Below are positions 11,289 to 59,750 of a stretch of DNA of 64,000 nt, piece after piece. How positions within the stretch are numbered: position 1 is the first letter of the stretch; each line of letters starts with the position of its first letter. This DNA is from Gammaproteobacteria bacterium (GTDB taxonomy: Bacteria > Pseudomonadota > Gammaproteobacteria > UBA4575). The position numbers and the translations under genes were made by a program. The stretch spans positions 1,589,935-1,653,934 of the forward strand of contig OZ242278.1 in the NCBI GenBank assembly GCA_965207475.1, in the 5' to 3' direction. The notes under the pieces were generated by a model. That model did not search any database. It had not been told where the DNA came from and worked only from the letters and a program-made list of their open reading frames with translations.

Positions 11289-11327
11289 TTGGCAGGACCC
11301 TGCACGGGTCACAGGCCGGGCGTATCC

Positions 11328-38455: not shown

Positions 38456-40903
38456 ATGGCGGAGTATATGGCAGAACCGGGCGGCCTGGATCCCGGTATA
38501 TCTAGAAGAGGTATGGTCGAGCCGTCGGTTCTGAATGCTCTCCCGCACTTTTTGTCCCTTACAGTTTTTCCACTTTTAATCTGTGCCGTGGTATACGGTG
38601 GCTGGTGGATCATCGGGCCGTTTGTCTACTTCGGGCTCGCAAACTGGTTTGACTCGCTGTTTGGCATGGAAAAGCGAAACATGGACCCGGGCAATACGCT
38701 CGAAAGCCAGTTATTCCTGTACAAGCTAGCTGTCTGGATGTGGGCTGTGATGTGGCCCGCCACACTCGTGCTCTCGCTTTGGCTGATGCTTGTCGCTGAC
38801 CATTTGGCCGTTTGGGAATCTGCACTGATCACCATCACCTTGTTTTTTACAGCCCAGTCAATCTTCATCGTTGGACATGAGCTGGTGCACAGGACCTCCT
38901 GGCTGGAAAGACGGTTTGGTGAATTCCTCTTGGCGTCGTCTTCCTATCCGCATTACGCTACTGAACATATTTATGTTCATCATTCTCTGGCCTGTACGCC
39001 TGCTGATCCCGGGTCTGCGAGAAAGGGCCAGAGTTTCTGGCAGTACTTTCCCAGGGATTTGAGGCGAAGTCTGATCGAGTCCTGGCGTTTTGAGCGCGAC
39101 CGGCTTGCACGACGGCACTTGCCTGTGTGGCACTATACGAATCCTTTCTGGCGCTACTCCCTAGAAACCGCTGCGTGGTATGCGCTGGTGTACTGGATGG
39201 GAGGGATCTGGGTAGCGCTGGTCTTCGCCGTATTGTGTTTCTTCCTTGTCCTGTCGATGAAAATCATCAACTATGTCCAGCACTATGGGCTGGAGCGCAT
39301 CCGCCTTCCCGGCGGCCGGTATGAGCCGGTTCTGGTGCGACACTCCTGGAGTGCTGCCAGCAGGTTCACCAACTGGCTCTATTACAATATGCAACGCCAT
39401 TCGGACCATCACACCGAGGCCACCCGGTACTACCCGCTGTTGCAGTATCACGGTGGGGACGAGTCGCCACAGTTACCGGAAGGTTACTCCGCGATGGCTA
39501 ATTACGCGATGGTCCCTCGTGTCTGGTTCCGAAAGATGGATCCGCTGGTTGATCGCTGGCGTGCACACTTTTATCCACAGATTGAGGACTGGAGCGCCTA
39601 TGACAGCGCTGCATACGCTGCCTGCCCGGACGAGTTCGAAGCCATTTCGGAGATCTATGATGCCGCACCACGCATGGCCGAATGGATAAACCGGGCTCCG
39701 GAACTGCTCGAGAGCCTGCGGGACAGGGAGTTCACCGCTCTTGACCTCCCGGATGGCTTCGCCCCGGATCCGGAATTCGAAATGGTTGCGCGGCGAGGGC
39801 TGGCGCGTGTGTACTGGACACGCGAGTTTGATGTTTCTGAAATGAAGGAGCAACTTGCCGCAATACCGGCCCAGGGCGTAAAGGAAGTGGTAGAGACTGC
39901 AAGAAACTGGCTCAACGACAAGGTCTTTCAGATCAGCATGCACATGATCCGCGGTAATCTGCAGCCGACCGAGGCAGGGAAAGTCCTGTCCAACCTTGCC
40001 GAGGCCTCGGTCTGCATCCTGCTGTCGGCGGTTGAGGTGGAATTTGCCAACCGGCGTCGTCGACGCGGCGAAGGTGCCGTCACAGCTGTACTTCTGGGTG
40101 AATCTGCCAGCGGAGAGGCAGCACCCGGTACAAGGCTCGATGTCATGTTCGCGTACGAAGGCGGCCCTGTAGAATATTATCAAGCCCTGTGCAGACGGTT
40201 CCTTGAGGAACTGCGTACATTTTCGCATGAAAACCTGCTTTTTCAGCCACTTCCACGTGGCGGGAAGGGAAGGGGTGTCTGGTCCGTGGCTGAATTTGCC
40301 GAACATTACCGGGGAGACACGGTGAACGGTCTGCCGGACCTCATTCAGTCACGGTGTGTCTTTGAATCCGGAAATCCCGGAATTTGGACCCGCCTGGACA
40401 CGGTGCGACACGAAGTCCTGTCCTCTGGTGCTTCCCGCATCGCACAGGCAGATGCGTTGCGTGAAGCTCTGGGAGCAGCCGGTACGGCCGAACCGGGTCT
40501 GCAGTCGATCGAAGAAATGCGTGGTGGCCTTCGGGAGCTCGTGCATGCAGCCAGGCTGGTACAACTGGCCCATGCCGGTGAGGCTCCTGAAATTCTGGTT
40601 CCTGATACGGCTTCCGCATTCCGGACTGCAGGCAGTCTCGGGCTGATTGCCGGGGATGTCTCCAGGCGGCTGGCCGATGCAGCAGAGATGTGGTTGAACC
40701 TGCATGGCATTTTGCGACTGGTGGTCAAGGATGGCTTTGCCATCGAGAAGGCAACACCGAAGGTCCAAGCCGTCATTGCCCGTTCCTGCGGGATGAAGGA
40801 TTTCAGTGCGCTGACCGATGCAATACATGAAACGGCGGACCGTACCGCTGCAGACATCGATGCGCTGGACAGCACAGTCCTGAAATCAACCCGTATATCC
40901 TGA
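38456..40903 (+). CDS. Fusion protein: AlkB/fatty-acid-desaturase-type membrane di-iron oxygenase (N-terminal) + GlnE/GlnD-like nucleotidyltransferase domain (C-terminal)
   Basis: His boxes HELVHR, EHIYVHH, NYVQHYGL and RHSDHH lie within TM segments. The C-terminal half aligns with the GlnE adenylyltransferase core (LDVMFAYEG; LFQPLPRGGKGRGVWSVAEFAEHY; LIQSRCVFESGNP). A GGAGG SD precedes the ATG. Confidence 0.7.
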   Translation: MAEYMAEPGGLDPGISRRGMVEPSVLNALPHFLSLTVFPLLICAVVYGGWWIIGPFVYFGLANWFDSLFGMEKRNMDPGNTLESQLFLYKLAVWMWAVMWPATLVLSLWLMLVADHLAVWESALITITLFFTAQSIFIVGHELVHRTSWLERRFGEFLLASSSYPHYATEHIYVHHSLACTPADPGSARKGQSFWQYFPRDLRRSLIESWRFERDRLARRHLPVWHYTNPFWRYSLETAAWYALVYWMGGIWVALVFAVLCFFLVLSMKIINYVQHYGLERIRLPGGRYEPVLVRHSWSAASRFTNWLYYNMQRHSDHHTEATRYYPLLQYHGGDESPQLPEGYSAMANYAMVPRVWFRKMDPLVDRWRAHFYPQIEDWSAYDSAAYAACPDEFEAISEIYDAAPRMAEWINRAPELLESLRDREFTALDLPDGFAPDPEFEMVARRGLARVYWTREFDVSEMKEQLAAIPAQGVKEVVETARNWLNDKVFQISMHMIRGNLQPTEAGKVLSNLAEASVCILLSAVEVEFANRRRRRGEGAVTAVLLGESASGEAAPGTRLDVMFAYEGGPVEYYQALCRRFLEELRTFSHENLLFQPLPRGGKGRGVWSVAEFAEHYRGDTVNGLPDLIQSRCVFESGNPGIWTRLDTVRHEVLSSGASRIAQADALREALGAAGTAEPGLQSIEEMRGGLRELVHAARLVQLAHAGEAPEILVPDTASAFRTAGSLGLIAGDVSRRLADAAEMWLNLHGILRLVVKDGFAIEKATPKVQAVIARSCGMKDFSALTDAIHETADRTAADIDALDSTVLKSTRIS

Positions 40904-41010: not shown

Positions 41011-43359
41011 TTGGAGAAAAGTACGGACAGGAAGGCATCACCTAACGCCGGTTCATCCCGCAGTATTCTGAAGAAAACCACCGAAGCTGACTGCGGTTTC
41101 ATCGAGAAACCCGTACTTGTCCCGCACCTGGAATTCAGGTTGCTGGGCGGGCGGCAAGCGCTGCTGGTTTCTGAAACTTTCAACACGCTGCTCCATGGGC
41201 AGCTGGTTTGCGATATTCTGCCGCTTCTTGATGGCCGCCGCACACGCCGGGACATCATGGCATCCCTGACCGGCAAGCATCTGGGGCCCGATATCCTGAC
41301 CGCGCTCACCTTCTTGACAACCAAGGGGTATATTGTCTCGGGGGAGTACAGAATGGAACAGGGGCAGGCGGCATACTGGTCTTCACAGGGTGTCACTCCT
41401 CGATATGCCGAGGAGCGGCTGAAGTCATTGCAGGTAGATGTAGCCGGCGATGAAGGCCGCCACCTTGCCCGGCGGCTTGAAGCCATGGGTGTGTACTTGG
41501 ACAGGAGCCATCCGGCCCTTTCCATTATCATTTGTGCCGATTTTCTTGATGAGCGGAATGCGGCCCTCAACCGGCGCCATGTCAGCTCTGGCGTACCCTG
41601 GTTGCTGGTCAGGCCAAAGGGCGTGATTCCACTGCTTGGCCCGGTTTTCCGGCCTGCGGAGCAGGGGCCTTGCTGGGCCTGCCTGGCCTACCGCCTGCAA
41701 GGCCAGCAGGAGGTCCATAACTTCCTGCGCAATCGTGCCGGCACTGAGGCCGCCTTTCAGCCCTTTGCGGCCGAACCCATGGTGCTGGAGACGGTGTACG
41801 GGCTGTTTGCGGCGGAGATTGCCAAGTGGCTGGTCTTCGGCGAGCTGGCGCCGATACATGAGCATGCAATCACGCTGGATGTCGCTGCACTGAAAACGGC
41901 GAGACATCCGGTGCGCAGGCGACCACAGTGCGTGGTGTGCGGCGAGGAAAGGCACTTCAGCCCTGATCGCCCGGCCAGTCCGGTGCACCTCAAGTCCAGT
42001 CCCAAAAACGTTCAAAACAGTGGTGGTGTGCGCTCGGTGTCTCCCGAAGAGACCCTGGCCAAGTACCGCCATCTCATCAGCCCAGTCAGCGGGGTGGTGA
42101 CCTGGATCGAACGTACCACGGACGTGTACGATCACTGGCTTCATGTCTATTGGGCCGGTAGCAATCTGGCCCTTCGTGTCAAAAACCTGAGCTCGCTGAG
42201 ACGCAGCCTGCGGAGCAAGAGTGCAGGCAAGGGAAGCACACCCGAACAGTCCGAGGCGAGTGCGCTTTGCGAGGCGGTTGAGCGCTATTCGGGCGCATTC
42301 CACGGGGATGAGATCCGTACTTGCAAACGGTTTTCAGAATTTTCTGACAAGGAACAGGAGTTTGACGCCATCCACCCGAACCAGGTCCAGTTGTTCAGTG
42401 ATCACCAGTTCGACCATGCGCGCGAGATCAATGCCAGGCAACATCCCTACAATTTTGTTCCTGGCCGGCTCGACCCGGAGGCTGCGATCGAATGGTCGCC
42501 GGTCTGGTCGCTCACGCGAGGTCGGCACTGTTACCTTCCGACCTCCATGCTCTACAGCATGACGCCGGAGCAGCGAGGCACTTCAGACTTGATTGCGGAT
42601 TCGAACGGCTGTGCGGCCGGCAATACGCTGGAGGAAGCTATCCTGCAGGGATTTTTCGAACTGGTGGAACGTGACGCGTTCGCCATCTGGTGGTACAACC
42701 GGCTGCGCTTTCCCGCGGTCGACCTGGAGAGTTTTGGCGACGCCTACCTTGCGGGTGCGCAGGACTACTACCGAAAGCTCCACCGCGAGATGTGGCTGCT
42801 GGATATCACGGGTGATTTTGGCATTCCGGCCTTTATTTCCATCTCGCGACGAACCGATTCACAACCCGAAGACATCCTGTACGGGGCCGGTGCGCACACC
42901 GATCCGCATATCGCGGCCTTGCGTGCAGTATGCGAAATGAACCAGTGCCTGACCTGGGTTCCCCGCCCGGAAACCGGCCATACCGGGTACGGAGTGGATG
43001 ACCCGATGTGCCTGTCATGGTGGAAGAACGCCACGCTTGAGGAATATCCCTACCTGGCCCCCGATCCTGGGGCCGCAACACGGGGCCGCCCGGATTATTT
43101 CGTGCCCGAAACTTCGGATGTGAAAGAGGATGTCGAGCGGTGCGGTGCACTGGTAAAAGCCAGGGGCCTGGAGATGCTTGTACTTGACCAGACCCGTCCC
43201 GATATCGGCATGCCGGTAGCCCGGGTGATCGTGCCGGGATTGCGTCACTTCTGGGAAAGGTACGCACCGGGGCGCCTGTACGACGTGCCGGTCAACATGG
43301 GCTGGCGGGAAAAACCGCTGGCTGAGGCCGACCTCAACCCCGTCCCGGTCATCGCCTGA
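41011..43359 (+). CDS. Fused E1-like (leader-binding/ThiF-like) + YcaO cyclodehydratase, PatD/TruD-like
   Basis: The 782-aa protein has an N-terminal E1-like domain with Cys pairs (CWAC, CVVCGE) and a C-terminal YcaO domain (ALCEAVERYSG; CAAGNTLEEAILQGFFELVERDAFAIWWYN). It appears to start at TTG. Confidence 0.85.
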   Translation: MEKSTDRKASPNAGSSRSILKKTTEADCGFIEKPVLVPHLEFRLLGGRQALLVSETFNTLLHGQLVCDILPLLDGRRTRRDIMASLTGKHLGPDILTALTFLTTKGYIVSGEYRMEQGQAAYWSSQGVTPRYAEERLKSLQVDVAGDEGRHLARRLEAMGVYLDRSHPALSIIICADFLDERNAALNRRHVSSGVPWLLVRPKGVIPLLGPVFRPAEQGPCWACLAYRLQGQQEVHNFLRNRAGTEAAFQPFAAEPMVLETVYGLFAAEIAKWLVFGELAPIHEHAITLDVAALKTARHPVRRRPQCVVCGEERHFSPDRPASPVHLKSSPKNVQNSGGVRSVSPEETLAKYRHLISPVSGVVTWIERTTDVYDHWLHVYWAGSNLALRVKNLSSLRRSLRSKSAGKGSTPEQSEASALCEAVERYSGAFHGDEIRTCKRFSEFSDKEQEFDAIHPNQVQLFSDHQFDHAREINARQHPYNFVPGRLDPEAAIEWSPVWSLTRGRHCYLPTSMLYSMTPEQRGTSDLIADSNGCAAGNTLEEAILQGFFELVERDAFAIWWYNRLRFPAVDLESFGDAYLAGAQDYYRKLHREMWLLDITGDFGIPAFISISRRTDSQPEDILYGAGAHTDPHIAALRAVCEMNQCLTWVPRPETGHTGYGVDDPMCLSWWKNATLEEYPYLAPDPGAATRGRPDYFVPETSDVKEDVERCGALVKARGLEMLVLDQTRPDIGMPVARVIVPGLRHFWERYAPGRLYDVPVNMGWREKPLAEADLNPVPVIA

Positions 43360-43526: not shown

Positions 43527-43773
43527 CTCCACCGCATTGACCTTCAGTCTGTGTTGCCGCGGATGGTAAATACCTTGATCAACCTTGGTTTGGACTCAGT
43601 GGATTCGGAGCACGTGGTCTAAGTTGGACTGCTCTCGGAGTAACAGGGTTGCAGGCTGCGAAATGGCATGTTTATTACTTGGCATGAGGCTTCCGTTGCA
43701 ATGAAGCTTGTTGCGCGACTTGCCGCCAAGGCCGTTCGCAGCTAGTCACGTCATTCCTGTGAGCAAGCGCGGC

Positions 43774-46104
43774 ATGAAAAAAGGGCAATTTGCCAGGCGA
43801 TTTGCCGAACAGGTGCTCACGGCCCGCTGGCTGGTCATCGTGGCCACGCTGTTACTGGTTGCGGGCGCATCAAGCGGCATCGCCCTGCTTGAATTCTCAG
43901 CCAACTACCGAATCTTCTTCGACGAAGACAATCCGCAGCTTCTGGCATTGGAAGCACTGGAGAATACTTACGGGAAGAACGAGAACATCGTGTTCCTGAT
44001 TGCCCCGGACGATGGTGACGCCACGTCACAAAACGCACTGTCGGCCGCCGTCTGGCTCACGGAAGCCGCCTGGTTGACGCCCTATTCAAGGCGAGTCGAC
44101 TCACTCGCCAATTTTCAGTACACGACTGCCGATGGCGACGATCTGTATGTGCGGGACCTTGTTGATCCGCAGGAACTGGCCCAGGCCGAGGTGCGGTCAC
44201 GAATTCGTGACGTTGCCCTGTCCGACCCGCGGATAGCAGGCACCATTCTAGCCCGGAATGCTGATGTCAGCGTTGTAAACGTCGCGGTCGAGCTGCCCGA
44301 GGAGGGCCTGCTGGAGGCTGTGGCCGAAGTCGCCGAATATGCCAGGTCGGTTGCCGCGGAGGCTGAAGAACGGTTTCCCGACATAGACCTTCGCATCGTC
44401 GGTACGGTCATGATCAACCAAACCTTCCTGGAAGCCTCGATCAACAGCCAGAAGGTTTTCCTGCCCGCAAGCCTGCTGCTCATGGCCTTGATCCTTGGTG
44501 TCCTCACACGGGGCTGGGCAGGGGTGGCGGCGACCGGAATTGTCATAGTCTTTTCCATTTTCACGTCAGTGGGCCTGGGTGTGTGGGTCGGCTTACCCTT
44601 TTCCCCGCCCGTCTCGCCAGCACCGACCATCGTGCTGATGATCGTCGTGGCAAACTGTGTGCACTTGCTGGTGGCTGTGCAGCAGCATTTGCGTGCGGGG
44701 GATTCCAAGCACGACGCCATCGTTGAAGCTGTCAGGCTCAACTTGCACCCGGTATTTCTGGCGAGTCTCACAACGGCGATTGGATTCTTGAGCATGAACT
44801 TTTCCGAAGTGCCGCCCTATCGTCATCTCGGAAACTTCGTCGCATTCGGAATCGTCGCCTCTTTCGTTCTCTCCGTCACCTTTCTTCCGGCCCTGCTTTC
44901 GCTTCTTCCTATCCGTGCGGCAAAGGACCGTCGGCTGCTCCGCGGACCCACAATGCACCGCTTGGCGGATGTTGTGTTGCGCCATAGAAAGCCGCTGTTT
45001 TGGGGATGGCTGGTGGTTGTGCTTGCAATGATTCTGTCCATTCCGCGAAACGAGCTCAATGATGTTCTGGTCCACTTTTTCGATGAGGGCGTTGAATTCC
45101 GGCAAGATGTGGACTTCATGGACGAGCACCTAAGCGGCAACACCCTGCTTGAGTACTCGCTGCACGCATCTGCTGAGGGAGGTGTCACCGATCCGCTTTT
45201 CCTCGCCGAGGTTTCGAGCTTCGCCGGCTGGTACCGTGACCAGCCCCCTGTACGCCACGTGTCGGTCATTACCGATACCTTTCAGCAACTTAACAAGAGC
45301 ATGCACGGAGACGACCCGGGTGCCTACCGAATACCGGAAAGCCAGGAACTGGCGGCACAATACCTGCTGCTTTACGAACTCTCGCTTCCGCAGGGTCTGG
45401 ACCTGAACAATCAGATTGACAGGTCCAGATCAGCCACGAGAGTGACGGTCTCGGCGGAAACACTTTCTTCGCAAGAAGTGCTTGAGCTGAATGCGCGTGC
45501 CGAGGCATGGCTAAAGGAAAATGCATCGCATGTTGCCGGCGTCAACAGCACCGGCCCCGCCGCGTTGTTCGCCTACATCGGGCATCGCAACATTCGGGCC
45601 ATGCTAGTCGGGACAATGGTTGTTCTCTTGGCAATTTCTGTCATTCTGCTCGTCGCGTTGCAATCACTGCGACTGGGCTTGATAAGCATCGTCCCCAATT
45701 TGATTCCTGCAGTGCTGGGCTTCGGTGTCTGGGGATTGATGGTCGGACAGGTTGGACTTTCGCTATCTGTCGTGGTGGCCATGACCGTCGGCATCGTCGT
45801 GGATGACACTGTGCATTTTCTCAGCAAGTACCAGCGGGCGCGAAATGAATACGGCCAGAGTCCCGAGGAAGCGGTACGCTACGCCTTTGACACGGCAGGC
45901 CGGGCCCTGTTTACAACGACGGTCGTGCTGGTGGCCGGTTTTTTGATTTTTATGTTTTCACCCTTCGTTCCCACCGCACAGGTTGGTGTCCTCACCGGGA
46001 TGATTATTGCCTTTGCATTCATCGCCGACCTGACACTCCTGCCTGCGTTGCTGACAGCGGTGGACCGGAATGCTGCAAAGCGGACCGCGCTTGCACCCGA
46101 CTGA
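43774..46104 (+). CDS. MMPL-family / RND-superfamily exporter (HpnN-like, two SSD-like 6-TM bundles)
   Basis: The 776-aa protein has an N-terminal TM (RWLVIVATLLLVAG) and two periplasmic domains with an overall MMPL layout. The ATG at 43774 is preferred over the TTG at 43708. Confidence 0.8.
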   Translation: MKKGQFARRFAEQVLTARWLVIVATLLLVAGASSGIALLEFSANYRIFFDEDNPQLLALEALENTYGKNENIVFLIAPDDGDATSQNALSAAVWLTEAAWLTPYSRRVDSLANFQYTTADGDDLYVRDLVDPQELAQAEVRSRIRDVALSDPRIAGTILARNADVSVVNVAVELPEEGLLEAVAEVAEYARSVAAEAEERFPDIDLRIVGTVMINQTFLEASINSQKVFLPASLLLMALILGVLTRGWAGVAATGIVIVFSIFTSVGLGVWVGLPFSPPVSPAPTIVLMIVVANCVHLLVAVQQHLRAGDSKHDAIVEAVRLNLHPVFLASLTTAIGFLSMNFSEVPPYRHLGNFVAFGIVASFVLSVTFLPALLSLLPIRAAKDRRLLRGPTMHRLADVVLRHRKPLFWGWLVVVLAMILSIPRNELNDVLVHFFDEGVEFRQDVDFMDEHLSGNTLLEYSLHASAEGGVTDPLFLAEVSSFAGWYRDQPPVRHVSVITDTFQQLNKSMHGDDPGAYRIPESQELAAQYLLLYELSLPQGLDLNNQIDRSRSATRVTVSAETLSSQEVLELNARAEAWLKENASHVAGVNSTGPAALFAYIGHRNIRAMLVGTMVVLLAISVILLVALQSLRLGLISIVPNLIPAVLGFGVWGLMVGQVGLSLSVVVAMTVGIVVDDTVHFLSKYQRARNEYGQSPEEAVRYAFDTAGRALFTTTVVLVAGFLIFMFSPFVPTAQVGVLTGMIIAFAFIADLTLLPALLTAVDRNAAKRTALAPD

Positions 46105-46393: not shown

Positions 46394-46645
46394 ATGAGAA
46401 GCGGAGATGATATGCTGAAGCAGATTGTTGAGAAGTCTGCCTTGAATGCGGAGTTCAGGCAACAGCTTCTTGATGATCCAAAATCTACCATCAGTGGGGA
46501 GCTGGGTATTACAATTCCCGATTCGATGAATGTCGTGGTCCATGAGAGCGACATGCAGACGGTGCATCTTGCACTGCCACCGGACCCGAACATCACCGAG
46601 GAGCAGCTTGAGGCGATTTCAGCCGGCCTTTGCTGTTGCTGGTAG
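46394..46645 (+). CDS. NHLP (nitrile-hydratase-leader-peptide) family RiPP precursor; predicted core LCCCW after a GA/GG-type cleavage site (…EAISAG|LCCCW)
   Basis: The leader reads KQIVEKSALNAEFRQQLLDDPKSTISGELGITIPDSMNVVVHESDMQTVHLALPP, which is characteristic of NHLP leaders. An AGGAG SD lies 7 nt upstream, and the protein is 83 aa with a C-terminal Cys3-Trp. Confidence 0.8.
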   Translation: MRSGDDMLKQIVEKSALNAEFRQQLLDDPKSTISGELGITIPDSMNVVVHESDMQTVHLALPPDPNITEEQLEAISAGLCCCW

Positions 46646-46768: not shown

Positions 46769-47827
46769 TCAGGTGGAAACCGCTCCGGAAAGTACCATGA
46801 ACACGTAGGCTTTCGCTTTTCGGAGTTGATTTTCAGATATGACCAGTTTGATGTGGTGAATGCCACGTAGCATGACAAAACGCCCGGACTTTGCAAAGAG
46901 CGTTGTCGGTTTCGAAACCCAGTCAGCAAGTGCCGTCAGTTTCTCCGAGTCTACAAGGTCCTCATGACCGAGGGCATCCAAAAACGGGTCCCAATCGGTC
47001 AGGCCATCGAGCCAATAACGTGAATCCTTTGTATATCTCTGCTTGACGATAAGCGTAAGGCCGAGCGTCGGACCAACACCTTCTTCCCGCACGTCAATAT
47101 TCACCCCGGTCCTGACGATGTTCACGCGTTTCTTGAAGCGTGCAATCACGGAATCGACCGCAGAGACCTGGCCCGGCCAACCCGTGTTTTCGAGATAGCC
47201 ACATATTTCCTGCTGCGATTTGAAACCCATGATTGCCAGGCGGATTGCACGTGAGCGAGACGGGAATATGCCGAACGAATCCATGCGCGTATCGCCTGGC
47301 TGCGCCAGGTAGGCTCGTTCGACATTCTCCCGCTTGGTGTCGTGCATCCCCCAGCCTACACTGGAAACTAGCGCTTCAACCACCAGACCGATATCGTTCA
47401 CCTGACCACGGGCTCCAATGATTGGCCGTTCCCCGGGCCGAAGGAACATTCCCGGAAGCGAACAGTTGCTTTCCTGCGCCGAGCCAATGTCATATTCCAG
47501 CATCAGCTTGCGGCCTACGATTTCACGCAGGGGCGAGTTTTCGGCATCCATTTGTGTACACAACCGCGCGATCGCTTTTGCAGTCTCATCTGTCCTGTCA
47601 GTCCGTGCGCGCTCCATGAAAAACCCTGCCGTCCTGGTTCCGCTTGCCAGGGAAACGCCGAAATCCGCTTCAGGCCTGTGCGTATGCAACGGCAGTTCAA
47701 AGCCGAACGGAAGGGCGCCCATGGTAATGGGATGTTTCCTGGCACATTCGAGTATGCGCTCCCATTCCGGGACTCCGATAAGAATCGGAGAAATCCTGTT
47801 TCGAAAGTGCTCAAGCAATTCACCCAT
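46769..47827 (-). CDS. Hypothetical protein (352 aa) in RiPP cluster, unknown fold
   Basis: The ORF has coding-like composition and a GAGGG SD but no motif I recognise. It is the last gene of the minus-strand block. Confidence 0.5.
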   Translation of the reverse strand: MGELLEHFRNRISPILIGVPEWERILECARKHPITMGALPFGFELPLHTHRPEADFGVSLASGTRTAGFFMERARTDRTDETAKAIARLCTQMDAENSPLREIVGRKLMLEYDIGSAQESNCSLPGMFLRPGERPIIGARGQVNDIGLVVEALVSSVGWGMHDTKRENVERAYLAQPGDTRMDSFGIFPSRSRAIRLAIMGFKSQQEICGYLENTGWPGQVSAVDSVIARFKKRVNIVRTGVNIDVREEGVGPTLGLTLIVKQRYTKDSRYWLDGLTDWDPFLDALGHEDLVDSEKLTALADWVSKPTTLFAKSGRFVMLRGIHHIKLVISENQLRKAKAYVFMVLSGAVST

Positions 47828-48292: not shown

Positions 48293-49594
48293 TCAGGCCC
48301 TCAAGATTTCTACGAGACGCTCCAGGGCCTCGATACAAAAAGCAGAGGTAACGGATTCAGAGCCATGTCCTATCTGCCCTACAGCGCCCCACTTCAGCGA
48401 CTGGTCACCAAACGCGAGAAGCTCCGGCCAACTGCCGTCCTCATGTTGCGAGCTTATGAGCCTTTCCACCTGACGTTTCGCATCGGTGCTTTCAAGGTTG
48501 CCAGTATTGTAGAGCGCTGACACGGCCTGGGCGGTCTGGAGGATGTTGCCGAATTCTCCCTGCTCATCACGCAAGCCCAGGATACGGTCCGCAAGTAGCG
48601 GGCGCAGTTGATCAAGGGCAGGTTGCACACGAATCATGGCACGGGTGATTGCATAGCAGATTGTGACAGTGTCGGGATACCATTTGGACGAGCCCTCGAG
48701 GCTCCCGTCGGCAATCAGGGATTTCAGCCATCGTTGGGCAGCCTTGGTTTCGGGGTTGTCACCGAGGTAAGCGATGACGTTTGCATTGACTACGGGGTCC
48801 GCTTCGATACGAAATCTCGACACGACATTGGGCTCGTCTTCCTCCAGTACCCAGGTCATGAAACGACCCTCCTCGTCACGGTTCGCCAAGATTCGCGGAA
48901 CATTCCTTCCCAGCAAGATCCAGGGATGAGTCCCGATGACAAGGGAGCAGGTGGTGGTACTGTCAAGATCCTGGGGCAGATGCCGGTAGTAGCGCCACAA
49001 TCCGGGGTATTCAATGGTGTCGGCAAGATACGCCTTGGTGGCGGTGCATAGGGCCCTGGCCTTCGCTTCATCGCAGCATTCCAGGGCCAGTACGCAAAGA
49101 GCCGAGATAAAAGGAGGTCTTTCGAAATGCCGTGGGATGTCCGGGTCGGCTATGTTGAACCGGATGCAGTGCCAGGCACCATTTTCGTCAATTGTGGATT
49201 CCAGGAAATCGAGGCCGCGGCGGATACTTTTCCTGCCCGCTTTTACAAGCTCCTTGGTGGTGGCTGCGTGCTGTCGGGCGTACTCACTTTCAGGGGCAGG
49301 GGAACGAAAAGCCGGTGCGGGGTCATGAAGTGTCTTGCGAAGATACTCAAGTGAAGCAACGCCTGTTTTAGCCGCCTCCCGTTCGGCCTCACTGAGTTTG
49401 CTACACGGCGGCAGCACCAAGTGAGTCGAGGTATAGGTTTCTTCGTGCACGTGAATTTCATGATCCTCGGCCAGCGTCACGCCGAGTTCCTTTTCGATTG
49501 TTTCTTTGGGCTTCCCGAGCAGGCGTTCGCGAAAGTCACTGTCCTCGCCCGCTCTCGACACGAGAAACTCTGCTGCGTTATTCGGCTTTTTCAT
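48293..49594 (-). CDS. NHLP-leader-like N-terminal domain fused to an alpha/alpha-toroid repeat domain (prenyltransferase/terpene-cyclase-like NGAW/DGSW repeats)
   Basis: The first ~65 aa (FRERLLGKPKETIEKELGVTLAEDHEIHVHEETYTSTHLVLPP) are paralogous to the precursor's leader. The remaining ~360 aa contain ENGAW and EDGSW repeat motifs. Confidence 0.6.
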   Translation of the reverse strand: MKKPNNAAEFLVSRAGEDSDFRERLLGKPKETIEKELGVTLAEDHEIHVHEETYTSTHLVLPPCSKLSEAEREAAKTGVASLEYLRKTLHDPAPAFRSPAPESEYARQHAATTKELVKAGRKSIRRGLDFLESTIDENGAWHCIRFNIADPDIPRHFERPPFISALCVLALECCDEAKARALCTATKAYLADTIEYPGLWRYYRHLPQDLDSTTTCSLVIGTHPWILLGRNVPRILANRDEEGRFMTWVLEEDEPNVVSRFRIEADPVVNANVIAYLGDNPETKAAQRWLKSLIADGSLEGSSKWYPDTVTICYAITRAMIRVQPALDQLRPLLADRILGLRDEQGEFGNILQTAQAVSALYNTGNLESTDAKRQVERLISSQHEDGSWPELLAFGDQSLKWGAVGQIGHGSESVTSAFCIEALERLVEILRA

Positions 49595-49951: not shown

Positions 49952-52894
49952 TCAGGCGATCTGTCTTTTGACCAGTTTTCTGAATACCCCTTCAGCCTCC
50001 ATGAGTTCCTTGAAGGAGCCGCTTTGCACAACTTTTCCGGTCTGTAACACGTAGATGCGATCAGTCTGTTGCAGCGTGGACAGGCGATGGGCGATGACAA
50101 CCCGGGTGGGGGTCAGGGCAGTGAGGTTCTGCATGACCTTGGCCTGGTTTTCGTTATCCAGCCAGTTGGTTGCCTCGTCAAACAGCATGATTCGCGGACT
50201 GCCGATCACCGAGCGGGCGATTGTGACGCGCTGACTTTCACCCCCTGACAAAACCGCTCCGCTGGACCCGACCATGGTCATCATGCCCATGGGCATGCCC
50301 TTGATTTCGTTCTCGACTTCTGCAACCCTGGTCGCTGTCCAGACATCCTCGGTCGCCACTTCCTCGTGATGACTGACCAGATTGTCCCAGATATCCATGG
50401 GGTGGAGCCCGACAGATTGTGGCACTGCGCCGATTTTCCGGCGCACCTGTTTCAGGTTCAGGTGCCTCAGGTCCCGCCCGTCGTAATACACTGCGCCAGC
50501 AGTCGGGCGGTCGACTCCAAGCGCGAGCCGGAACAGGGTGCTCTTGCCTGCACCGGACTCGCCGGTGATCGCGACAAATTCGCCAGGACGGGCGTGAATC
50601 GTCACATCATCGAGAATTAACGGGCCATCAGGATCGTAACGAAAGGAAACCCGGTCGAACAGAATTTCGCCACCCAGATATTCAACCGGCTCTCCTTCGG
50701 TCTCGGTTTCAGGAACTGCTGCGAGCAGCGGACGCATCTGGTCGAATGCAGGCAGCATGGCGGCAATGGTGCCGAAGGACTCGCCCAGCCGGGCGATTGC
50801 GGACTGGAAAACGATGAAGACCAGGTAGACGACGAGAAAATCACCGATCAGGATGTGCCGGTCGCTCACCGCTGCCACCGCGAATAGCAGTACCCCACCC
50901 GCGAGAAAGGGGAGCGCGGCACCAAATGCGCGTGCATGCCCCTCAAATGCCCCCAGTTCGAGTTCTGCGCGTTTCTGCTCGCGATAATCCTGCGCCCAGA
51001 TGGCGAATGCCGAACCTTCCGCGTTTTCCACGCGCAGTTTGGTGAAACCGCCCACGATCTGGAACAGCCTGCCGGAAACACGACGCGCTGCACGGATCAT
51101 CCGCCCATATGGTGAAATCTGGAGCAAGCCAAGGGCTACCGTGATCAGCAGCGAAGCCAGACTGAAGGCGAGGGTAATGACCCCGAGGGTGGTGTTGTAG
51201 AAGAAAATGATGCCAAATACCGGAAGCAGGAAAATAATCGACAGCAAGCTGTCGGCGACGACTCCTTGCAAGCCATCGCGAAGATTCTGGAACGTCATCC
51301 CCGACATGGCCAGGTCGCCGGTTGAATGGCGGTGCAGAATGCTTGCCGGAAGGCGCATGAGGCGGTCCCAAAAGGCAGCTTCGGCCCGCGATGCGGAACG
51401 ACCCTCAAGCCGCATCATTGCCGTGCTTTGAAACAGGTGCAGCAGTGCACCGAGCAGACCAAATACCGCCAGCGCCACGGCCACTGAATAGATCACTCCG
51501 GCACTTCCGCCTGCAGTTATTTCATTTGCAGCGTAGCCTAGGGCGAGGGCTGGCAACAGTTTGATCAGGCCGCCCGGAAGCCCGGAAATCACCAGCCGCA
51601 CCAGATCCGCGGCTGATCCATGCAGGGCGATTCCCAGCAGGTCAGACGGTTTCACGTTCTCCGAAGGCAAGGGGCGATAGAACATCCAGGCTTCTTCCCC
51701 CAGCGTGTTGGCGCGACCTGCTGCAATCCGCACGCTGCACTTGCTGACTGGGTCGATTTCCCGATAGCGCCCAAATTTTCCCGGCAGCAGCGCTACGGGC
51801 TGGCCATCCTCTGCCCGAAATCCCAGCATCGCGCTACTGTCGCCGCGCCACCAGTGGTCTTCGGCTTTCAATCGTACGCGCCGGGCACGTACGGCTGATG
51901 CATCAAGCACTTCAACGAGGCTGACCGGAGTATCGGAAGGTTCCGAGCGCGTGGGAATCTTGAAATCGATACCTTCATGGCGGCCGATGATTTGCAAGGC
52001 ATCTGTCAGGGCCGTGTCTTCGACACGGGTATCCTGGCCTGTCGGCAAGTCATAGATATTGAAAAGCCGCTGTCGTGCAGTTTTTTCAGCCGTACGTCGG
52101 CTGGTCGTCCGTGCACGTTCGAGATTCACTTCGTCGACCACGGCCAGTTGGCGGTTAAGGCGTTCCAGGGCGAATGCAACCGCGTGAAAAGATGCGAGCG
52201 CTGGCAGCAACATGTCTTGCTGAGCCAGTGTTTCCGTTGATTTACCCAGCAATGTGGCCCTGTCAAACAAGGTGAGCCAGCTTGTCCGCGTCAGCGGTAT
52301 CATGGTTTCATGTGAGCCGCTTGCTTCGGCAAGCTCTGCCTGGTCGACGATGTCCATGAACAGGAATTCGCCGCGCAGTGGCTTGGATACCCATACCACA
52401 TTGCGATGTACGGACAGTATGCAAGGTGGAAAGGTCCGTGCCATACCGGGATCGGCCAGCGCAGTTGCACGCGGAATGGGGCTTGCAAACCGAGAAAGTG
52501 TGTCAGTAATGGCGGTCAGCCAGGTATCCGTCTGCTCCGCCAGTTCTGCCGGATGAACCTCGGACAGCAAGGATGCCGGGAGGCGCTTCAGAAGAGTACC
52601 TGGCGATCCTTTTGCAATCAGGCTGAGGGTGGTATCTTTATTGTTGTCACGTTCGTCTGGTGCCACCCCCGGCAGTATCCAGCCCGCTTCGCGACGCAGC
52701 AGATGCTGCGGCGCTGCCTGTTCCACCCCGTCCTTGAATTCAACCAGGAACAGATTGACGGAACCCTGGTCAATAAACCAGACACTGCCTGGGTCGTCGA
52801 GTTTCACCGGCAAGTTGCCGGCACAAGGTACGGTTGTGCCGGAACGAGCTACGAGTTCGGCAATCGATGTGCAGTTCGGGCTTTTGTCCAGCAT
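49952..52894 (-). CDS. NHLP/NHLM-type bacteriocin ABC transporter, ATP-binding/permease protein without an active peptidase (N-terminal accessory domain + 6TM + NBD)
   Basis: The 980-aa protein has Walker A GESGAGKST and signature LSGGESQRV, with a ~450-aa N-terminal extension lacking the C39 Cys. Confidence 0.8.
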   Translation of the reverse strand: MLDKSPNCTSIAELVARSGTTVPCAGNLPVKLDDPGSVWFIDQGSVNLFLVEFKDGVEQAAPQHLLRREAGWILPGVAPDERDNNKDTTLSLIAKGSPGTLLKRLPASLLSEVHPAELAEQTDTWLTAITDTLSRFASPIPRATALADPGMARTFPPCILSVHRNVVWVSKPLRGEFLFMDIVDQAELAEASGSHETMIPLTRTSWLTLFDRATLLGKSTETLAQQDMLLPALASFHAVAFALERLNRQLAVVDEVNLERARTTSRRTAEKTARQRLFNIYDLPTGQDTRVEDTALTDALQIIGRHEGIDFKIPTRSEPSDTPVSLVEVLDASAVRARRVRLKAEDHWWRGDSSAMLGFRAEDGQPVALLPGKFGRYREIDPVSKCSVRIAAGRANTLGEEAWMFYRPLPSENVKPSDLLGIALHGSAADLVRLVISGLPGGLIKLLPALALGYAANEITAGGSAGVIYSVAVALAVFGLLGALLHLFQSTAMMRLEGRSASRAEAAFWDRLMRLPASILHRHSTGDLAMSGMTFQNLRDGLQGVVADSLLSIIFLLPVFGIIFFYNTTLGVITLAFSLASLLITVALGLLQISPYGRMIRAARRVSGRLFQIVGGFTKLRVENAEGSAFAIWAQDYREQKRAELELGAFEGHARAFGAALPFLAGGVLLFAVAAVSDRHILIGDFLVVYLVFIVFQSAIARLGESFGTIAAMLPAFDQMRPLLAAVPETETEGEPVEYLGGEILFDRVSFRYDPDGPLILDDVTIHARPGEFVAITGESGAGKSTLFRLALGVDRPTAGAVYYDGRDLRHLNLKQVRRKIGAVPQSVGLHPMDIWDNLVSHHEEVATEDVWTATRVAEVENEIKGMPMGMMTMVGSSGAVLSGGESQRVTIARSVIGSPRIMLFDEATNWLDNENQAKVMQNLTALTPTRVVIAHRLSTLQQTDRIYVLQTGKVVQSGSFKELMEAEGVFRKLVKRQIA

Positions 52895-55104
52895 CAGCCC
52901 GACTTAACCAGTTTGTAATACATGCCACCCTGGTCCGCAATCAACTCATCGTGCGTACCGCGCTGTACTGTAACGCCCTTGTCAAGCACGATAATTTCGT
53001 CACAATCCCGCACGGTACTCAGCCGGTGCGCCAAGATCAGGCAGGTGACACCGCGACGCCGCAAGGCATCATCAACGTATTCCTCTGTCGCTGCATCGAA
53101 CGCGCTGGTCGCCTCGTCCAGAATGAGCACTGTCGGATTGCCCACCAGCGCACGGGCGATTTCCAGCCGTTGTCGCTGGCCTCCACTGAAATTCACACCG
53201 CCTTCCTCGACGACGGTTGAATATCCTTGTGGCCTGAGCAGGATTTCGTCATGAATCTGGGCATCCCGCGAGGCGGCGAAGATGACTTCATCCGGTATGG
53301 CTGAGTTCCATAAGGTGATATTGTCGCGCAGCGACGCGGAAAAGAGCACGATTTCCTGATCCACCATGGAAATGGACTGCCGGAGCACTTCCTCGGGAAT
53401 CTCATCCCGCAGATGCCCATCGAACAGGATTTCGCCTGACCATGGCTGGTAGACACCCGAAACCAGACGTGCCAGGGTCGACTTGCCAGAACCACTGGGA
53501 CCGACTACGGCAACCCGCTGTCCTGGTTTGATCATGAGGCTGAAGTCCTGTATCAAAGGCGGTCGGCTCTTGTTGAAACCGAAGGTGACGTTTTGCAGTT
53601 CAAGCTGGCCGGCAAGCTGGAGCCGACCATTGAATGTGGGGATTGACTCCGATTCCGGACTTCGGCGGCTGTAAATGGGGTCTTCAGCGGTCTTGGAGAT
53701 ATCCTCAAGCCGTTGCAGATCGGTTTCGAGCGCCTGGCGTTTGTCGACGAACCCCAAAAAACGGCCAACAGGTGCCAGGAACATCTCTGCCAGGATATAG
53801 AACCCAACCAGTGCTCCCAGGGTCATTTCGCCGGTCATGACCAGGCTTCCCCCTATGCCGATGATCACGGCACTGCGAAGCACGGCAACCAGGCCCGGAA
53901 GCGCAGTATTGACCGAGCCCAGTTCGGAATAGAGCTGGCGCGCATGCAGTTCGCGCGCTTGATGACCGCTCCAGCGGGAAAAAAACCGGTCATCCGATCC
54001 TGTCATGCGCAGGTTGTCTGCATGGCTCAACATCTGCATGCCGACGCCTATCAACAATCCTTGTTCTCGCCGCATGGCCTGGCTGCGAACCCCCCGAAGC
54101 GCGTTGAGAAAGTGGAGCAACATTCCATGTGCAAGGGCCAGCAACAGTACCATCAGTGTGAGCAGGACATCGTAGGCCAGCATCGCGGCCAGTAACACCG
54201 CGCTCATTGCCATGTCGATAATGAGCACAAGAAACTGGTCGGTCAGGTTCTTCGCAATCCTGTCGATGGACGAGACCCGGTCAGTCAAATCACCTGCCAG
54301 CCTGTGTTCAAAAAACTCCACCGGCAATCGCAGTAACCGCGACACGCCCCGGTTGTAGCCAATCACCGATATCCGGACTTCGAGTCGCTTCAGGAACCGG
54401 TGCTTGAGCAGGGACAAAATGTATACCAGGACACCGCCGCCGAGCAGGGCTGCCACCAGTCCACCCCAGGGACCATGGTTTTCCAGAACATCGTCCACGA
54501 AAAAACTGAGAGCTACGGGCACAACAAGTGCCAGTAACGTCAACATGAATCCGCAAGCAATCACTACGGCAAGCACACTCCATGATCCGGCAAGCAAGGT
54601 GGTCAATTGACTGAGCAAGTCGGGACGCTCGCCGCCGGGTTTGAAATCGCCACTGCGCTTGAATCGCAGCGCAATTCCACTGTAGTCCTTGCTGAATTCT
54701 TCGGCAGTAACCCTGCGCCGCCCCGTGGACGGGTCATTGAGGTAGAAATAGCCGTCATCGAAACCCTCAAGGACAACGAAATGGCTGAATTGCCAGAACA
54801 AAATCAGAGGCAACTGCAGCTTCTTCAGTTGCTCAGCGCGTATACTGAGTCCATTGCATTCAAGACCATAGTGTCTGGAAGCGCGCGCGAGGCTCGCAGC
54901 ACTGCTGCCGTCTCGACTCACCTCGCATTTTTCGCGCAATTCCGTAAGCGGCACCCAGCGTCCGAAGTATGCCAATATGCTGCCAAGGCAGGCGGCACCA
55001 CATTCTGATGCGTGCATCTGTAGTAGGATTGGCGTGGTGATCCTTTGTTTCAAGGAGTCCGAGGCAGTGTTGTCTCCAGCCCCTTTAGAGGCGCTTGGCG
55101 GCAT
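52894..55104 (-). CDS. NHLP-type bacteriocin ABC transporter with N-terminal C39 peptidase domain (peptidase/permease/ATPase)
   Basis: A C39 active-site Cys lies in QMHASECGAACL, followed by 6 TM, Walker A GPSGSGKST and signature FSGGQRQR. Confidence 0.85.
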   Translation of the reverse strand: MPPSASKGAGDNTASDSLKQRITTPILLQMHASECGAACLGSILAYFGRWVPLTELREKCEVSRDGSSAASLARASRHYGLECNGLSIRAEQLKKLQLPLILFWQFSHFVVLEGFDDGYFYLNDPSTGRRRVTAEEFSKDYSGIALRFKRSGDFKPGGERPDLLSQLTTLLAGSWSVLAVVIACGFMLTLLALVVPVALSFFVDDVLENHGPWGGLVAALLGGGVLVYILSLLKHRFLKRLEVRISVIGYNRGVSRLLRLPVEFFEHRLAGDLTDRVSSIDRIAKNLTDQFLVLIIDMAMSAVLLAAMLAYDVLLTLMVLLLALAHGMLLHFLNALRGVRSQAMRREQGLLIGVGMQMLSHADNLRMTGSDDRFFSRWSGHQARELHARQLYSELGSVNTALPGLVAVLRSAVIIGIGGSLVMTGEMTLGALVGFYILAEMFLAPVGRFLGFVDKRQALETDLQRLEDISKTAEDPIYSRRSPESESIPTFNGRLQLAGQLELQNVTFGFNKSRPPLIQDFSLMIKPGQRVAVVGPSGSGKSTLARLVSGVYQPWSGEILFDGHLRDEIPEEVLRQSISMVDQEIVLFSASLRDNITLWNSAIPDEVIFAASRDAQIHDEILLRPQGYSTVVEEGGVNFSGGQRQRLEIARALVGNPTVLILDEATSAFDAATEEYVDDALRRRGVTCLILAHRLSTVRDCDEIIVLDKGVTVQRGTHDELIADQGGMYYKLVKSG

Positions 55105-55656
55105 TTATGACCGCCTCATTCGCAATAGTGTGACCGGGGCTTGCCTGCCAATTTTGATGACAACCTGGCATTCCCTGCTCGCAAGGGAAGCAAAATAAAG
55201 GCTTTCGTCGAGTGTGATGTTTACCCGGTGTAAGGACACCGGCGCTGCAGGGTCGAACACTGCCAGCTCCTCGGATAAGGGTATGGCGGTGATTTTTGCA
55301 ACCTTTCCGTCGAGTGAGTCAGCTTGTCCACCTGACTTTTCCAACTCTATCACCGCTGGCATCCCGGCCTTGATATGCGGTGCGACGTCGCTCCGGGCCC
55401 AGACGAGCACTTGCACGGTCCTGTTGCCCTCAAGCAGGTTTTCACCAGGCTCGACCAGCACGCCATCCACCGCGAGACTACGGGCCATGCTCCCGAAGAA
55501 GAGCCACGCAGCAAGGATGAACAGTAAAAGAGCAATGACAGCAACAAGAAGCCGCTCCCGCGGTGTGGAAATCGTCAGCAGCCGGTCAAGTTGTTCCCGT
55601 TCTTCCTTTGCTTCGGCAACAGTGTTGTGGAATGAGTCAAATGGATTATTGAACAC
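55105..55656 (-). CDS. Short HlyD-like secretion (membrane-fusion) protein of the NHLP export module
   Basis: A single N-terminal TM precedes a periplasmic domain. It is only 183 aa, against about 400 aa for typical NHLM secretion proteins, and is translationally coupled to the C39 ABC gene. Confidence 0.55.
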   Translation of the reverse strand: MFNNPFDSFHNTVAEAKEEREQLDRLLTISTPRERLLVAVIALLLFILAAWLFFGSMARSLAVDGVLVEPGENLLEGNRTVQVLVWARSDVAPHIKAGMPAVIELEKSGGQADSLDGKVAKITAIPLSEELAVFDPAAPVSLHRVNITLDESLYFASLASRECQVVIKIGRQAPVTLLRMRRS

Positions 55657-56150
55657 GACCGTGAATCTCCCTATGAAAAATCAGGCAGGGGCAAAAATCT
55701 GGTCCAGCTTGAGTAGGATTTTTAGAGATTATATGCAAATATCGATTGTGAAATATAAAATTTTCATGGTTCTGGAAATTTAGTGTGGTGTGTATCGGCG
55801 GAGGGCTTTCAGGCCAGGTCGTTTTCAGCTTCTTTATTTTGGTCAAGCCCCGTTTCTGGTCTTCCATCCGGAGGCAGTGGAGCCAGTAGCCTGTGATCGC
55901 GGCGGGAAGGGCATGGTACAGGTCGCCGGCAATCCCATGCCGTGGTGGCCTCCTCGTCGATGCCGGTGATCACCGGCATCGTGTCATGAATCCTCTGCCG
56001 AGTGCGCCCTGTTGGAATTTCCAGCCAGCCCATGGCTTCACCCTTTGCAGGGAATTCACGGTATAATGCCACTCGTTTGTCACGGTACCTGTGTAGATGT
56101 TTCCTGACTACGAAACTGCCGAAATCCGGCTTGTCGGCCGAGACTGGACA

Positions 56151-58405: not shown

Positions 58406-59750
58406 GTGTTGTGTACACGACACATCCAAATATCCCGAGAAGGTGTTATCGACCGACATCTGTGGAAGTCATGTAGGGTGATTCAGCCGGGCAGTAAAAC
58501 ATTACGGAAGATTGCGGTTGTCGGGCGGGGGACCGCAGGGTCCTTGGCGGCAGCAAGCATAGCGCGACTTCACCCCGACAGCGACTACGAACTGCACCAC
58601 ATATATGACTCGCGCATCCCGGTCATTGGAGTGGGTGAAGGCAGTTGGCCGAGCCTGGTTCAACAATTGCAACAACTGACAAGTTTGCCCCATGACACCA
58701 TCCAGCAGCACTTGAGAGGAACCCGCAAGTACGGGGTTGCATTCGAGGGATGGGGTCGACGCAATCGAAACTTCACGCACTACTTTACACCGCGAAAGGT
58801 GTCCTACGCCTACCACCTGTCCGCCGACTTGATGGCGGATTTGCTGCACGAAAACACGCGCGCGCCACATCGATGCGAAAGTGCGCGATATCACCAGGAT
58901 AGAGGGTGGTGCACGGGTGGAGTTCGAGGGCCTGGCGCCGGAGCACTACGATTTAGTCTTTGATGCCCGCGGGTTTCCCAGGAAACTCCATCCAGACCAG
59001 CACATCGATATTTCTTTCATTCCCACCAATACAGCCGTCATCCGCCGCTGTCCGGCGATTATCAAGGAAGAGCAGGATGGACCCGTGCTGCAACATACCT
59101 ATACCCGTGCCGTTGCATGTCCGCACGGGTGGATATTCGTTATTCCGCTTACAGTACATACATCTTACGGGTACATCTTCAACCGCGATGTGTCCAGCCT
59201 TGCCGAAGTCGAATCAGACTTTGATGTTTTCCTTGACACCGATGGCGTGTCGGAATTTGAGCAACGTGCTGTCATACCGTTTCCCAATTTTGTCCACCGC
59301 CAGATTTATGATGGTGCGGTGGCTCGCATAGGCAATGCAGCCGCCTTCATGGAGCCCCTTGAAGCAACGGCCATTGTATCGGCCCAGATACAGATTGGGA
59401 TGGTACTCCACATGCGTCTCAACCGTTCGATAGAGTATCTTGAACGTGACGTGCCGATGGTCAATCAATTTCTTGTCAACAACATCCTCTGCTACGGCCT
59501 GTTCGTCGGTTGGCACTATTCCTGTGGCTCTAAGTATGATAGTGGATTTTGGCGCCATGCTCGTGACCGGGTTTGGCCACGATATCGTAAGGCAACAGAT
59601 CCCGAAGTTGTGGGCTGTGCCGCACTCCGCAAATTCGACGAAATGTTCGAATTGATGAGCCAGTCGAGCATCGACAAGGCAGACTGGACTCGAATGTGCG
59701 CGGTCCCGCTCACCAGTTATGTGCAGATGTCCGAGGGTCTTGGCTGCTAG
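58406..59750 (+). pseudogene. Flavin-dependent tryptophan halogenase, disrupted by a +1/-1 frameshift near 58860-58875 (assembly error or true pseudogene)
   Basis: The two overlapping ORFs (58406..58963 and 58881..59750) together carry GRGTAGS (GxGxxG), GWIFVIP (WxWxIP-like) and GNAAAFMEPLEATAI halogenase motifs. Removing one base in the ACGCGCGCGCCA run restores ...HENTRAHIDAKVRDITRIEGG. Confidence 0.7.

Follow-up and report, generated by a model that had tools for sequence, protein, structure and literature searches.

In the 64,000-nucleotide stretch of contig OZ242278.1 analysed here (hereafter the window), which comes from a Gammaproteobacteria assembly, we examined the protein encoded at 48293..49594 on the minus strand, an NHLP-cyclase fusion for which TOR is used as a working name. 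TOR joins an N-terminal domain homologous to the nitrile hydratase leader peptide (NHLP) leaders of proteusin precursors to a toroid that we identify with high confidence, on fold and homology, as the domain of a class II terpene cyclase. The window holds an srp cluster (sponge-derived proteusin; proteusins belong to the RiPPs, peptides made by ribosomes and modified after translation) with the SrpE precursor that ends in LCCCW, the YcaO protein SrpC and a peptidase-containing ABC transporter (PCAT) exporter. We regard it as somewhat more probable than the contrary that TOR supplies the C (terpene-cyclase) half of a RiPP maturase of the prenyltransferase/cyclase (PC) type whose two halves are split, and that its leader domain serves as an uncleaved docking module. 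The parts of TOR are:

48293..49594, minus strand: TOR, complete open reading frame (ORF) of the NHLP-cyclase fusion, 433 residues, ATG start.
49361..49594, minus strand: residues 1-78, NHLP leader-like domain, with a nucleus of three helices (residues 7-37), the block HLVLPP, helix alpha-4 and a double-glycine motif in degenerate form, L(-12)SEAER(-7)EAA(-4)KT(-2)G(-1).
49310..49360, minus strand: residues 79-95, (A/V)ASLE(F/Y)LRKTLHDPAP(P/A), AASLEFLRKTLHDPAPP, the most conserved segment.
49259..49309, minus strand: residues 96-112, variable linker, 45% mean pairwise identity and low predicted local distance difference test (pLDDT) values.
48296..49258, minus strand: residues 113-433, monodomain class II terpene cyclase-like (alpha/alpha)6 toroid, with the QW-type motifs NRDEEGRFMTW and QHEDGSWPE.
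48959..48970, minus strand: D209-L-D211-S212, variant of the DxDD/DxDTT general-acid motif.

The coordinates given by an earlier annotation made from the window's letters alone (the sequence-only reading) are correct, the leader string that it quoted is found at residues 21-63 of TOR, and the ENGAW and EDGSW motifs are both present. The ORF is intact, with no frameshift or stop between a small precursor and a downstream enzyme gene. Over 1000 database proteins and 188 species-representative genomes show this same architecture of about 433 residues, which excludes a frameshift or missed-stop artefact.

A profile of the cyclase domain was built from 133 fused and leaderless relatives, and 121 sequences of this family alignment are fused members. 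When compared with the sequences of the PDB, the profile matched the class II domain of the drimenol synthase AsDMS (9mhs/9m7d) over the whole domain with an E-value of 4e-28, squalene-hopene cyclase (SHC) with 8.5e-21 and AstC with 1.5e-16, as well as the monodomain cyclases 8paj, 8pak and 6ij1 and, weakly, MstE. An alpha/alpha toroid had been proposed from the sequence, and this is borne out by PF13243 (SQHop_cyclase_C), which matches the C-terminal part of TOR above the gathering threshold, and by the AlphaFold2 model, which has a mean pLDDT of 86.9 and values mostly above 90 in the toroid. The 38 best matches of this model in a Foldseek search of the PDB were all class II cyclases, with E-values down to 1e-11, and the leading ones were AsDMS, the monodomain cyclases 8pak, 8paj and 6ij1, MstE and SHC. 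Moreover, Asp211 is invariant in all 133 family members and Asp209 nearly so, and in the HMMER alignment Asp211 stands opposite Asp333, the catalytic aspartate of AsDMS (Asn in the inactive D333N structure). QW-type repeats are also kept in the family, with Q383-x-x-D-G387-S-W389 invariant and NRDxxGRFxTW conserved.

The sequence-only reading had named three candidate folds for the toroid, those of terpene cyclases, LanC-like proteins and prenyltransferase beta subunits, and the first of them is the one that holds. No LanC was present among the best 50 fold matches, and the Cys/Cys/His site of these proteins is not conserved in TOR. The beta subunit of RabGGTase, which would represent CaaX-type prenyltransferases, appeared at rank 45 with a TM-score of 0.26, no match to PF00432 was obtained and the Asp/Cys/His triad is absent. 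No Cys/His set that could bind zinc is conserved in the 133-member alignment, where C420 is the only such residue kept family-wide and no His is. Thus, from the fold matches, the alignment of the catalytic Asp and the lack of a zinc set, the toroid is taken to be a class II terpene cyclase, neither LanC-like nor a prenyltransferase; with LanC-like cyclases and protein prenyltransferase beta subunits it has only the general alpha/alpha toroid architecture in common. MstE (6sbb), AsDMS (9mhs/9m7d), AstC (22ty), 8pak and 6ij1 share with TOR the (alpha/alpha)6 fold, QW-type motifs and the aligned catalytic Asp, but TOR is only 15-20% identical to monodomain or HAD-fused class II cyclases, and the substrates of these five enzymes are free isoprenoid diphosphates or meroterpenoids; a RiPP leader domain is absent from all of them.

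The general-acid motif reads DLDS(T) in all 121 fused members and DxDDT in the leaderless relatives, and this replacement of the third acidic residue of DxDD by Ser would suit a non-catalytic toroid, that is, a pseudo-enzyme which binds the mature lipopeptide or an isoprenoid as a chaperone, immunity protein or carrier, with the NHLP domain serving to co-localise it. Toroids can also be binding domains, as in the complement TED domains, which were weak Foldseek matches of TOR. We nevertheless consider a pseudo-enzyme quite improbable, because Asp211 and Asp209 are invariant or nearly so, because conservation over the whole domain is high (81%), and because functional AsDMS and AstC use DxDTT and oxidosqualene cyclases, as is generally known, use D-C-T-A-E. 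Since AsDMS uses DLDTT, loss of the third Asp in TOR is compatible with catalysis. The same type of cyclase domain was also seen fused to a sulfotransferase, to a UbiA prenyltransferase with TPR repeats and to a cytochrome P450 (P0187, P0237 and P0185), and these proteins point to a broader cyclase-fusion family.

The predicted partner of TOR and the precursor on which both may act are:

46769..47827, minus strand: X370, 352 residues, predicted ABBA aromatic (indole-type) prenyltransferase.
46394..46645, plus strand: SrpE proteusin precursor, 83 residues, with an NHLP leader and, at the core, ITEEQLEAISAG|LCCCW.

Gene linkage was counted over 53 loci with full 10-kb flanks, a gene being scored when it lay within 10 kb of the TOR homologue. 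X370 was linked to TOR in 52 of them, and its homologues accompany the cyclase at every locus examined, including NHLP clusters whose cyclase is leaderless. X370 had no match in Pfam, NCBIfam or the PDB sequences. When its profile was compared by hhalign with a profile of seven P-domain sequences, it matched the N-terminal domains of proteins of 650-700 residues that carry a C-terminal cyclase, with a probability of 98.7% and an E-value of 1.6e-16; with P0195 as a lone sequence in place of that profile, hhalign gave no match to X370. X370 and TOR are thus linked by gene fusion, because these database P-C proteins join a homologue of X370, as the P domain, to a homologue of TOR, as the C domain. 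This P-domain homology, together with the gene linkage, suggests that the cyclase is coupled to a peptide prenyltransferase, X370, of predicted ABBA fold.

A system of this kind has been reported. According to a review (PMC13290415) that describes the work of Hubrich et al. (Chem 2024), NctPC has a P domain of ABBA-like type joined to a C domain that resembles MstE, and it places a geranylgeranyl group on a peptide Trp before cyclising the chain; ChrPC has a P domain resembling a trans-isoprenyl diphosphate synthase. TOR and X370 resemble NctPC and ChrPC in that a monodomain class II cyclase of MstE type is paired with a peptide prenyltransferase, and in that the genes lie in RiPP clusters of the proteusin or Nif11 kind. 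They differ in that P and C are separate genes in the window, in that TOR adds the NHLP domain, the conserved 17-residue segment and the DLDS motif, and in that the cluster also encodes a YcaO protein, a brominase and a desaturase-like protein. Cyclic-isoprenoid RiPPs are listed as known in a further source (PMC13647313).

We think it fairly probable that TOR acts on prenylated SrpE. X370 would place an isoprenoid on the core of SrpE, most likely on the C-terminal Trp of LCCCW. Cyclisation of the chain would follow in the toroid (residues 113-433), with Asp211 protonating the terminal double bond, as reported for NctPC. A Trp acceptor is supported by the cores that lie beside leaderless cyclases, which are Trp-rich (6 of 73 residues, p = 4e-4), and by the C-terminal Trp of SrpE. 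The leaderless relatives, which have neither a signal nor a leader, support a cytoplasmic site of action, and the desaturase-like membrane protein and HpnN-like MMPL transporter of the cluster (listed below) would suit a lipidated product. The sequence-only reading had also suggested that the toroid itself prenylates the CCCW motif in the manner of a CaaX box. That part fails on the identification of the toroid as a class II cyclase without a zinc site, and the three Cys of LCCCW are published substrates of the YcaO protein, which converts them to thiazolines (PMC10858898); the isoprenoid idea survives, now attached to the adjoining ABBA prenyltransferase-like gene. Among the three roles that the sequence-only reading had considered, most support goes to that of a modification enzyme whose leader mimic is built in, since the invariant catalytic Asp is kept, and the leaderless and fused P-C relatives of the toroid sit in, or resemble, RiPP maturase contexts.

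Several points weigh against this reading. The general-acid motif is DLDS and not DxDD or DxDTT, so that activity is not assured. No isoprenoid-diphosphate synthase was found in the cluster, although no systematic search for one was made, and the published srp chemistry comprises thiazoline formation and Trp bromination only. The invariant Gly at -1 and the position of TOR directly after the PCAT genes in 38 of the 53 loci also fit export or cleavage of TOR. As to novelty, the NHLP-cyclase fusion was not found in the accessible literature, and it may already stand in Nguyen et al. 2021 or Hubrich et al. 2024.

The N-terminus had been read as a paralogue of the leader of the LCCCW precursor, and homology searches confirm this. 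BLASTP aligned residues 1-79 of the 83-residue precursor (46394-46645) with residues 1-79 of TOR without a gap, at 33% identity and an E-value of 5e-16, and the leader_NHLP model TIGR03793 matched residues 8-74 with an E-value of 8e-13. The score of the latter match, 48.1 bits, is below the curated cut-off of 50.9, and it is thus homology to TIGR03793 and not membership of the model that is established. PF02979 (NHase_alpha) also matches the leader region (E 2e-4). SrpE and other NHLP precursors agree with TOR in fold and sequence across the whole leader; unlike them, TOR continues not into a short C-terminal core but into 355 residues that fold as an enzyme, and its L(X)4L and double-glycine positions are replaced.

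By its conservation, the leader domain is no decaying relic. Mean pairwise identity is 72% for residues 1-47, 77% for residues 48-78, 85% for residues 79-95 (the highest), 45% for residues 96-112 and 81% for the cyclase domain. The segment of residues 79-95 is missing from the leaderless relatives. In the model, pLDDT is 84-90 for residues 7-37, about 57-63 for residues 48-90 and 84 for residues 91-100, and because of this last value the stretch around residues 91-100 probably packs on the toroid.

The recognition positions are unlike those of the genuine precursors. In TOR only Gly -1 and Leu/Phe -12 fit a double-glycine motif, and the hydrophobic residues at -4 and -7 are lacking: -7 is Arg in 121 of 121 fused members, -4 is Ala in 119 and -2 is Thr in 99, while -1 Gly is kept. 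The genuine NHLP precursors used for comparison have Leu at -7 in 9 of 9 cases and GG, AG or GA at the site, and the co-encoded SrpE has Leu, Ile and Ala at -7, -4 and -2. Published mutagenesis bears on these positions. Replacement of both Leu of L(X)4L by Ala nearly abolished bromination by SrpI (PMC10858898), and the same replacement abolished YcaO processing in vivo. For the C39 protease LahT150, changing Leu-7 to Lys or Asp strongly impairs cleavage, and a charged residue at -4 abolishes it (PMC6363468). By analogy with other enzymes, we infer that the fused leader would neither be processed by the C39 domain nor compete with SrpE for the RiPP recognition element (RRE) of the YcaO protein or for SrpI. 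Because the hydrophobic residues at -7 and -4 and the Gly/Ala at -2 that are used by the YcaO RRE, SrpI and C39 are lost, TOR most likely stays whole and cytoplasmic.

These results also bear on the second role put forward by the sequence-only reading, in which TOR is a large cargo cleaved and exported by the C39 transporter. The transporter would cut after Thr77-Gly78 and secrete the cyclase, whose substrate would be the lipopeptide once this had been exported, either in the periplasm or extracellularly. In line with this, the TOR leader lacks no part and runs collinear with SrpE as far as the invariant Gly -1, and class II cyclases are generally known to be cofactor-free. NHLM-type ABC1, ABC2 and HlyD genes lie directly upstream of TOR in the window and in 38 of the 53 loci; the usual order is HlyD-ABC1-ABC2 and then TOR, all on the same strand, with TOR often abutting the stop codon of ABC2. 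We consider export improbable. The putative site has Arg -7, Ala -4 and Thr -2 where SrpE has Leu, Ile and Ala, and LahT150 cleaves variants with Lys in place of Leu-7, or with a charged residue at -4, poorly or not at all. No export signal is present in the leaderless homologues or the P-C fusions, the prenyl donor and the prenyltransferase are cytoplasmic, and a folded toroid of 36 kDa is, as general knowledge has it, far above the size of known PCAT cargo. Moreover, Nitrospira loci from which the PCAT genes have been deleted show the NHLP domain conserved to an equal degree. There, a 73-residue ORF just upstream of the cyclase (srp locus L002, 9796-10017) is a remnant of the ABC2 Walker-A region, with 62-67% identity over about 40 residues. 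This remnant is all that is left upstream, and it indicates that the Nitrospira lineage lost the PCAT genes by deletion and kept the fusion intact.

The degenerate double-glycine motif therefore argues against C39 cleavage or export and favours an uncleaved docking or recognition module, a role to which we give about an even chance. The NHLP domain would be a duplicated precursor leader, captured by gene fusion, in which the folded three-helix nucleus was kept; as a docking or recognition domain it would bring the cyclase into the srp maturation and export assembly. It could stand in for the covalent P-C link, or it could occupy a leader-binding site.

A different use of such a site would be activation in cis, in which the fused leader folds onto the cyclase's own leader-binding site and leaves the enzyme permanently on. 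The cyclase could then take a substrate whose leader is occupied elsewhere or has already been removed. Leaderless relatives adjoin NHLP precursors and presumably recognise their leaders, residues 79-95 are the most conserved part of TOR and the confident modelling of residues 91-100 agrees with their packing on the toroid, and engineered leader fusions are generally known to activate LctM and LynD. There is no evidence of leader dependence in the cyclase family of TOR, and the model, with a pLDDT of 57-63 in the alpha-4/L(X)4L region, predicts no docking there; activation in cis is unlikely in our judgement.

It could also be imagined that TOR is itself a substrate with a protein-sized 'core', for example that X370 prenylates His/Tyr90 and yields a lipid-anchored enzyme. 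An aromatic residue does stand at +12 in the conserved segment after the leader (79 His, 42 Tyr), and the ABBA peptide prenyltransferases LimF and PagF can modify His and Tyr (PMC13290415). His and Tyr codons are one nucleotide apart, so the alternation may be meaningless; the segment of residues 79-95 is without Trp or Cys, leader-guided enzymes need an L(X)4L motif and that of TOR is broken, and such a modification is without precedent. We rate this as very improbable indeed.

Returning to TOR as the cyclase half of a split maturase with a docking module, a stronger proposal can be framed. The srp product would be a brominated thiazoline peptide with a cyclised isoprenoid on its C-terminal Trp, and the cyclase would be the first RiPP maturase from nature to carry a non-cleavable leader domain of its own, which recruits or activates it within a maturation/export complex and replaces the P-C link. 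As a joint claim this is tentative and, on balance, doubtful.

The TOR architecture spans about ten phyla in the 188 species-level genomes. Relatives with 71-94% identity occur in metagenome-assembled genomes (MAGs) of Gamma-, Alpha- and Deltaproteobacteria and of Gemmatimonadota (Ca. Palauibacter, Longimicrobiales), and further in Nitrospira, Nitrospinota, Binatia, Acidobacteriota, Latescibacterota and Poriferihabitaceae; several of these MAGs bear sponge-linked names, and the closest to the window is a gammaproteobacterial MAG (L009, 94%). Besides X370, the genes found with TOR were the YcaO gene (49/53), the desaturase-GlnE gene (44/53), the halogenase (43/53), C39-ABC1 (38/53) and ABC2 (37/53).

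Every fused member found, to an identity as low as 57%, belongs to a cluster of srp type, and this suggests that the fusion arose once. The leaderless relatives are 40-47% identical to TOR, and one of them (L006, 10001-10987) has an NHLP precursor gene immediately upstream (9469-9729). The TOR leader is 41-48% identical to most precursors beside leaderless cyclases, compared with 33% to SrpE, and the simplest origin of TOR would be a stop-loss or deletion that fused a precursor gene to a cyclase gene. The L006 locus (4219-5722, 9469-9729, 11243-11500) is a non-srp NHLP cluster whose genome has the fused type as well. It comprises six precursor genes, the cores of which are short and contain Trp, together with two leaderless cyclases and two paralogues of X370, and it also encodes a JmjC/cupin protein and a PCAT.

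The sequence-only reading had held that nothing like this arrangement was described, which needs to be divided. Prenyltransferase and terpene cyclase maturation of proteusins is already known, having been published in 2024. The NHLP-cyclase fusion was not found described: Haft 2010 mentions no such fusion, and literature on NHLP with squalene-hopene cyclase, or on proteusins with terpene cyclases, yielded nothing relevant. In the accessible texts, the X370/TOR pair in the srp cluster, the split arrangement and the conserved natural fusion of a degenerate NHLP leader to a maturase are apparently undescribed, and the most notable of these three points is the natural, widely conserved leader-maturase fusion. 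The nearest likeness is in the leader-LctM and leader-LynD fusions, laboratory constructs in which an authentic leader is placed on a leader-dependent maturase. They share with TOR a leader covalently joined to a RiPP maturase, but TOR is natural, occurs across phyla and has lost the canonical recognition motif.

Clusters of the srp type are widely distributed in sponge microbiomes and in many symbiont phyla, and their precursor genes are very highly transcribed. Two of their conserved 'hypothetical' genes now appear to encode an ABBA prenyltransferase and a class II terpene cyclase, and this gives a prediction for missing srp chemistry, namely a lipidated, terpene-cyclised peptide. Such a product, if real, would explain the lipid-type genes of the cluster (desaturase-like, MMPL/HpnN-like). 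The NHLP-cyclase fusion is also a natural experiment in leader logic, which could show how structured NHLP leaders mediate protein-protein assembly, and its NHLP domain could provide a portable recognition domain for the engineering of peptide-terpene hybrids.

The other genes of the cluster in the window are:

38456..40903, plus strand: membrane fatty-acid-desaturase-like domain fused to a GlnE-like domain, 815 residues, in 44 of 53 srp loci.
41011..43359, plus strand: SrpC-type fused E1-like/RRE-YcaO cyclodehydratase.
43708..46104, plus strand: MMPL/HAE3 RND transporter, HpnN-like, in 18 of 53 srp loci.
49952..55656, minus strand: NHLM export operon, directly upstream of TOR, with a short HlyD-like protein (55105-55656), C39-peptidase ABC1 (52894-55104) and ABC2 (49952-52894).
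58490..59747, plus strand: SrpI-type tryptophan halogenase gene, split over two frames.

The 252-bp SrpE gene, with ITEEQL...AG/LCCCW, is exactly of the SrpE type of the literature. SrpC turns the three Cys of SrpE into thiazolines and bromination of the C-terminal Trp is the work of SrpI, a flavin halogenase (PMC10858898; bioRxiv 10.1101/2023.06.09.544420; PMC9426513). The window thus has the 83-residue LCCCW precursor and the YcaO gene of an srp cluster, and also the halogenase gene, which is frameshifted. Its halves lie at 58490-58870 (frame 2) and 58839-59747 (frame 3), and it is either a frameshifted pseudogene or the product of a sequencing error; because the gene is split, this copy of the cluster may make an unbrominated product. 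The desaturase-GlnE fusion, in which the GlnE-like part of 38456-40903 is a nucleotidyltransferase domain, may tailor a lipid moiety. A scan of the 357-bp gap upstream of TOR for promoters and terminators gave nothing above background. The HlyD-like protein has 183 residues compared with the 421 positions of TIGR03794 and matches only the N-terminal ~50 residues of the model, and this short form is kept in other srp loci. Finally, a LolA-like protein (56097-56969, plus strand) and a 409-residue protein without a family match (56969-58198, plus strand) flank the HpnN-like MMPL/HAE3 transporter, with which they form a trio of lipid-export type.

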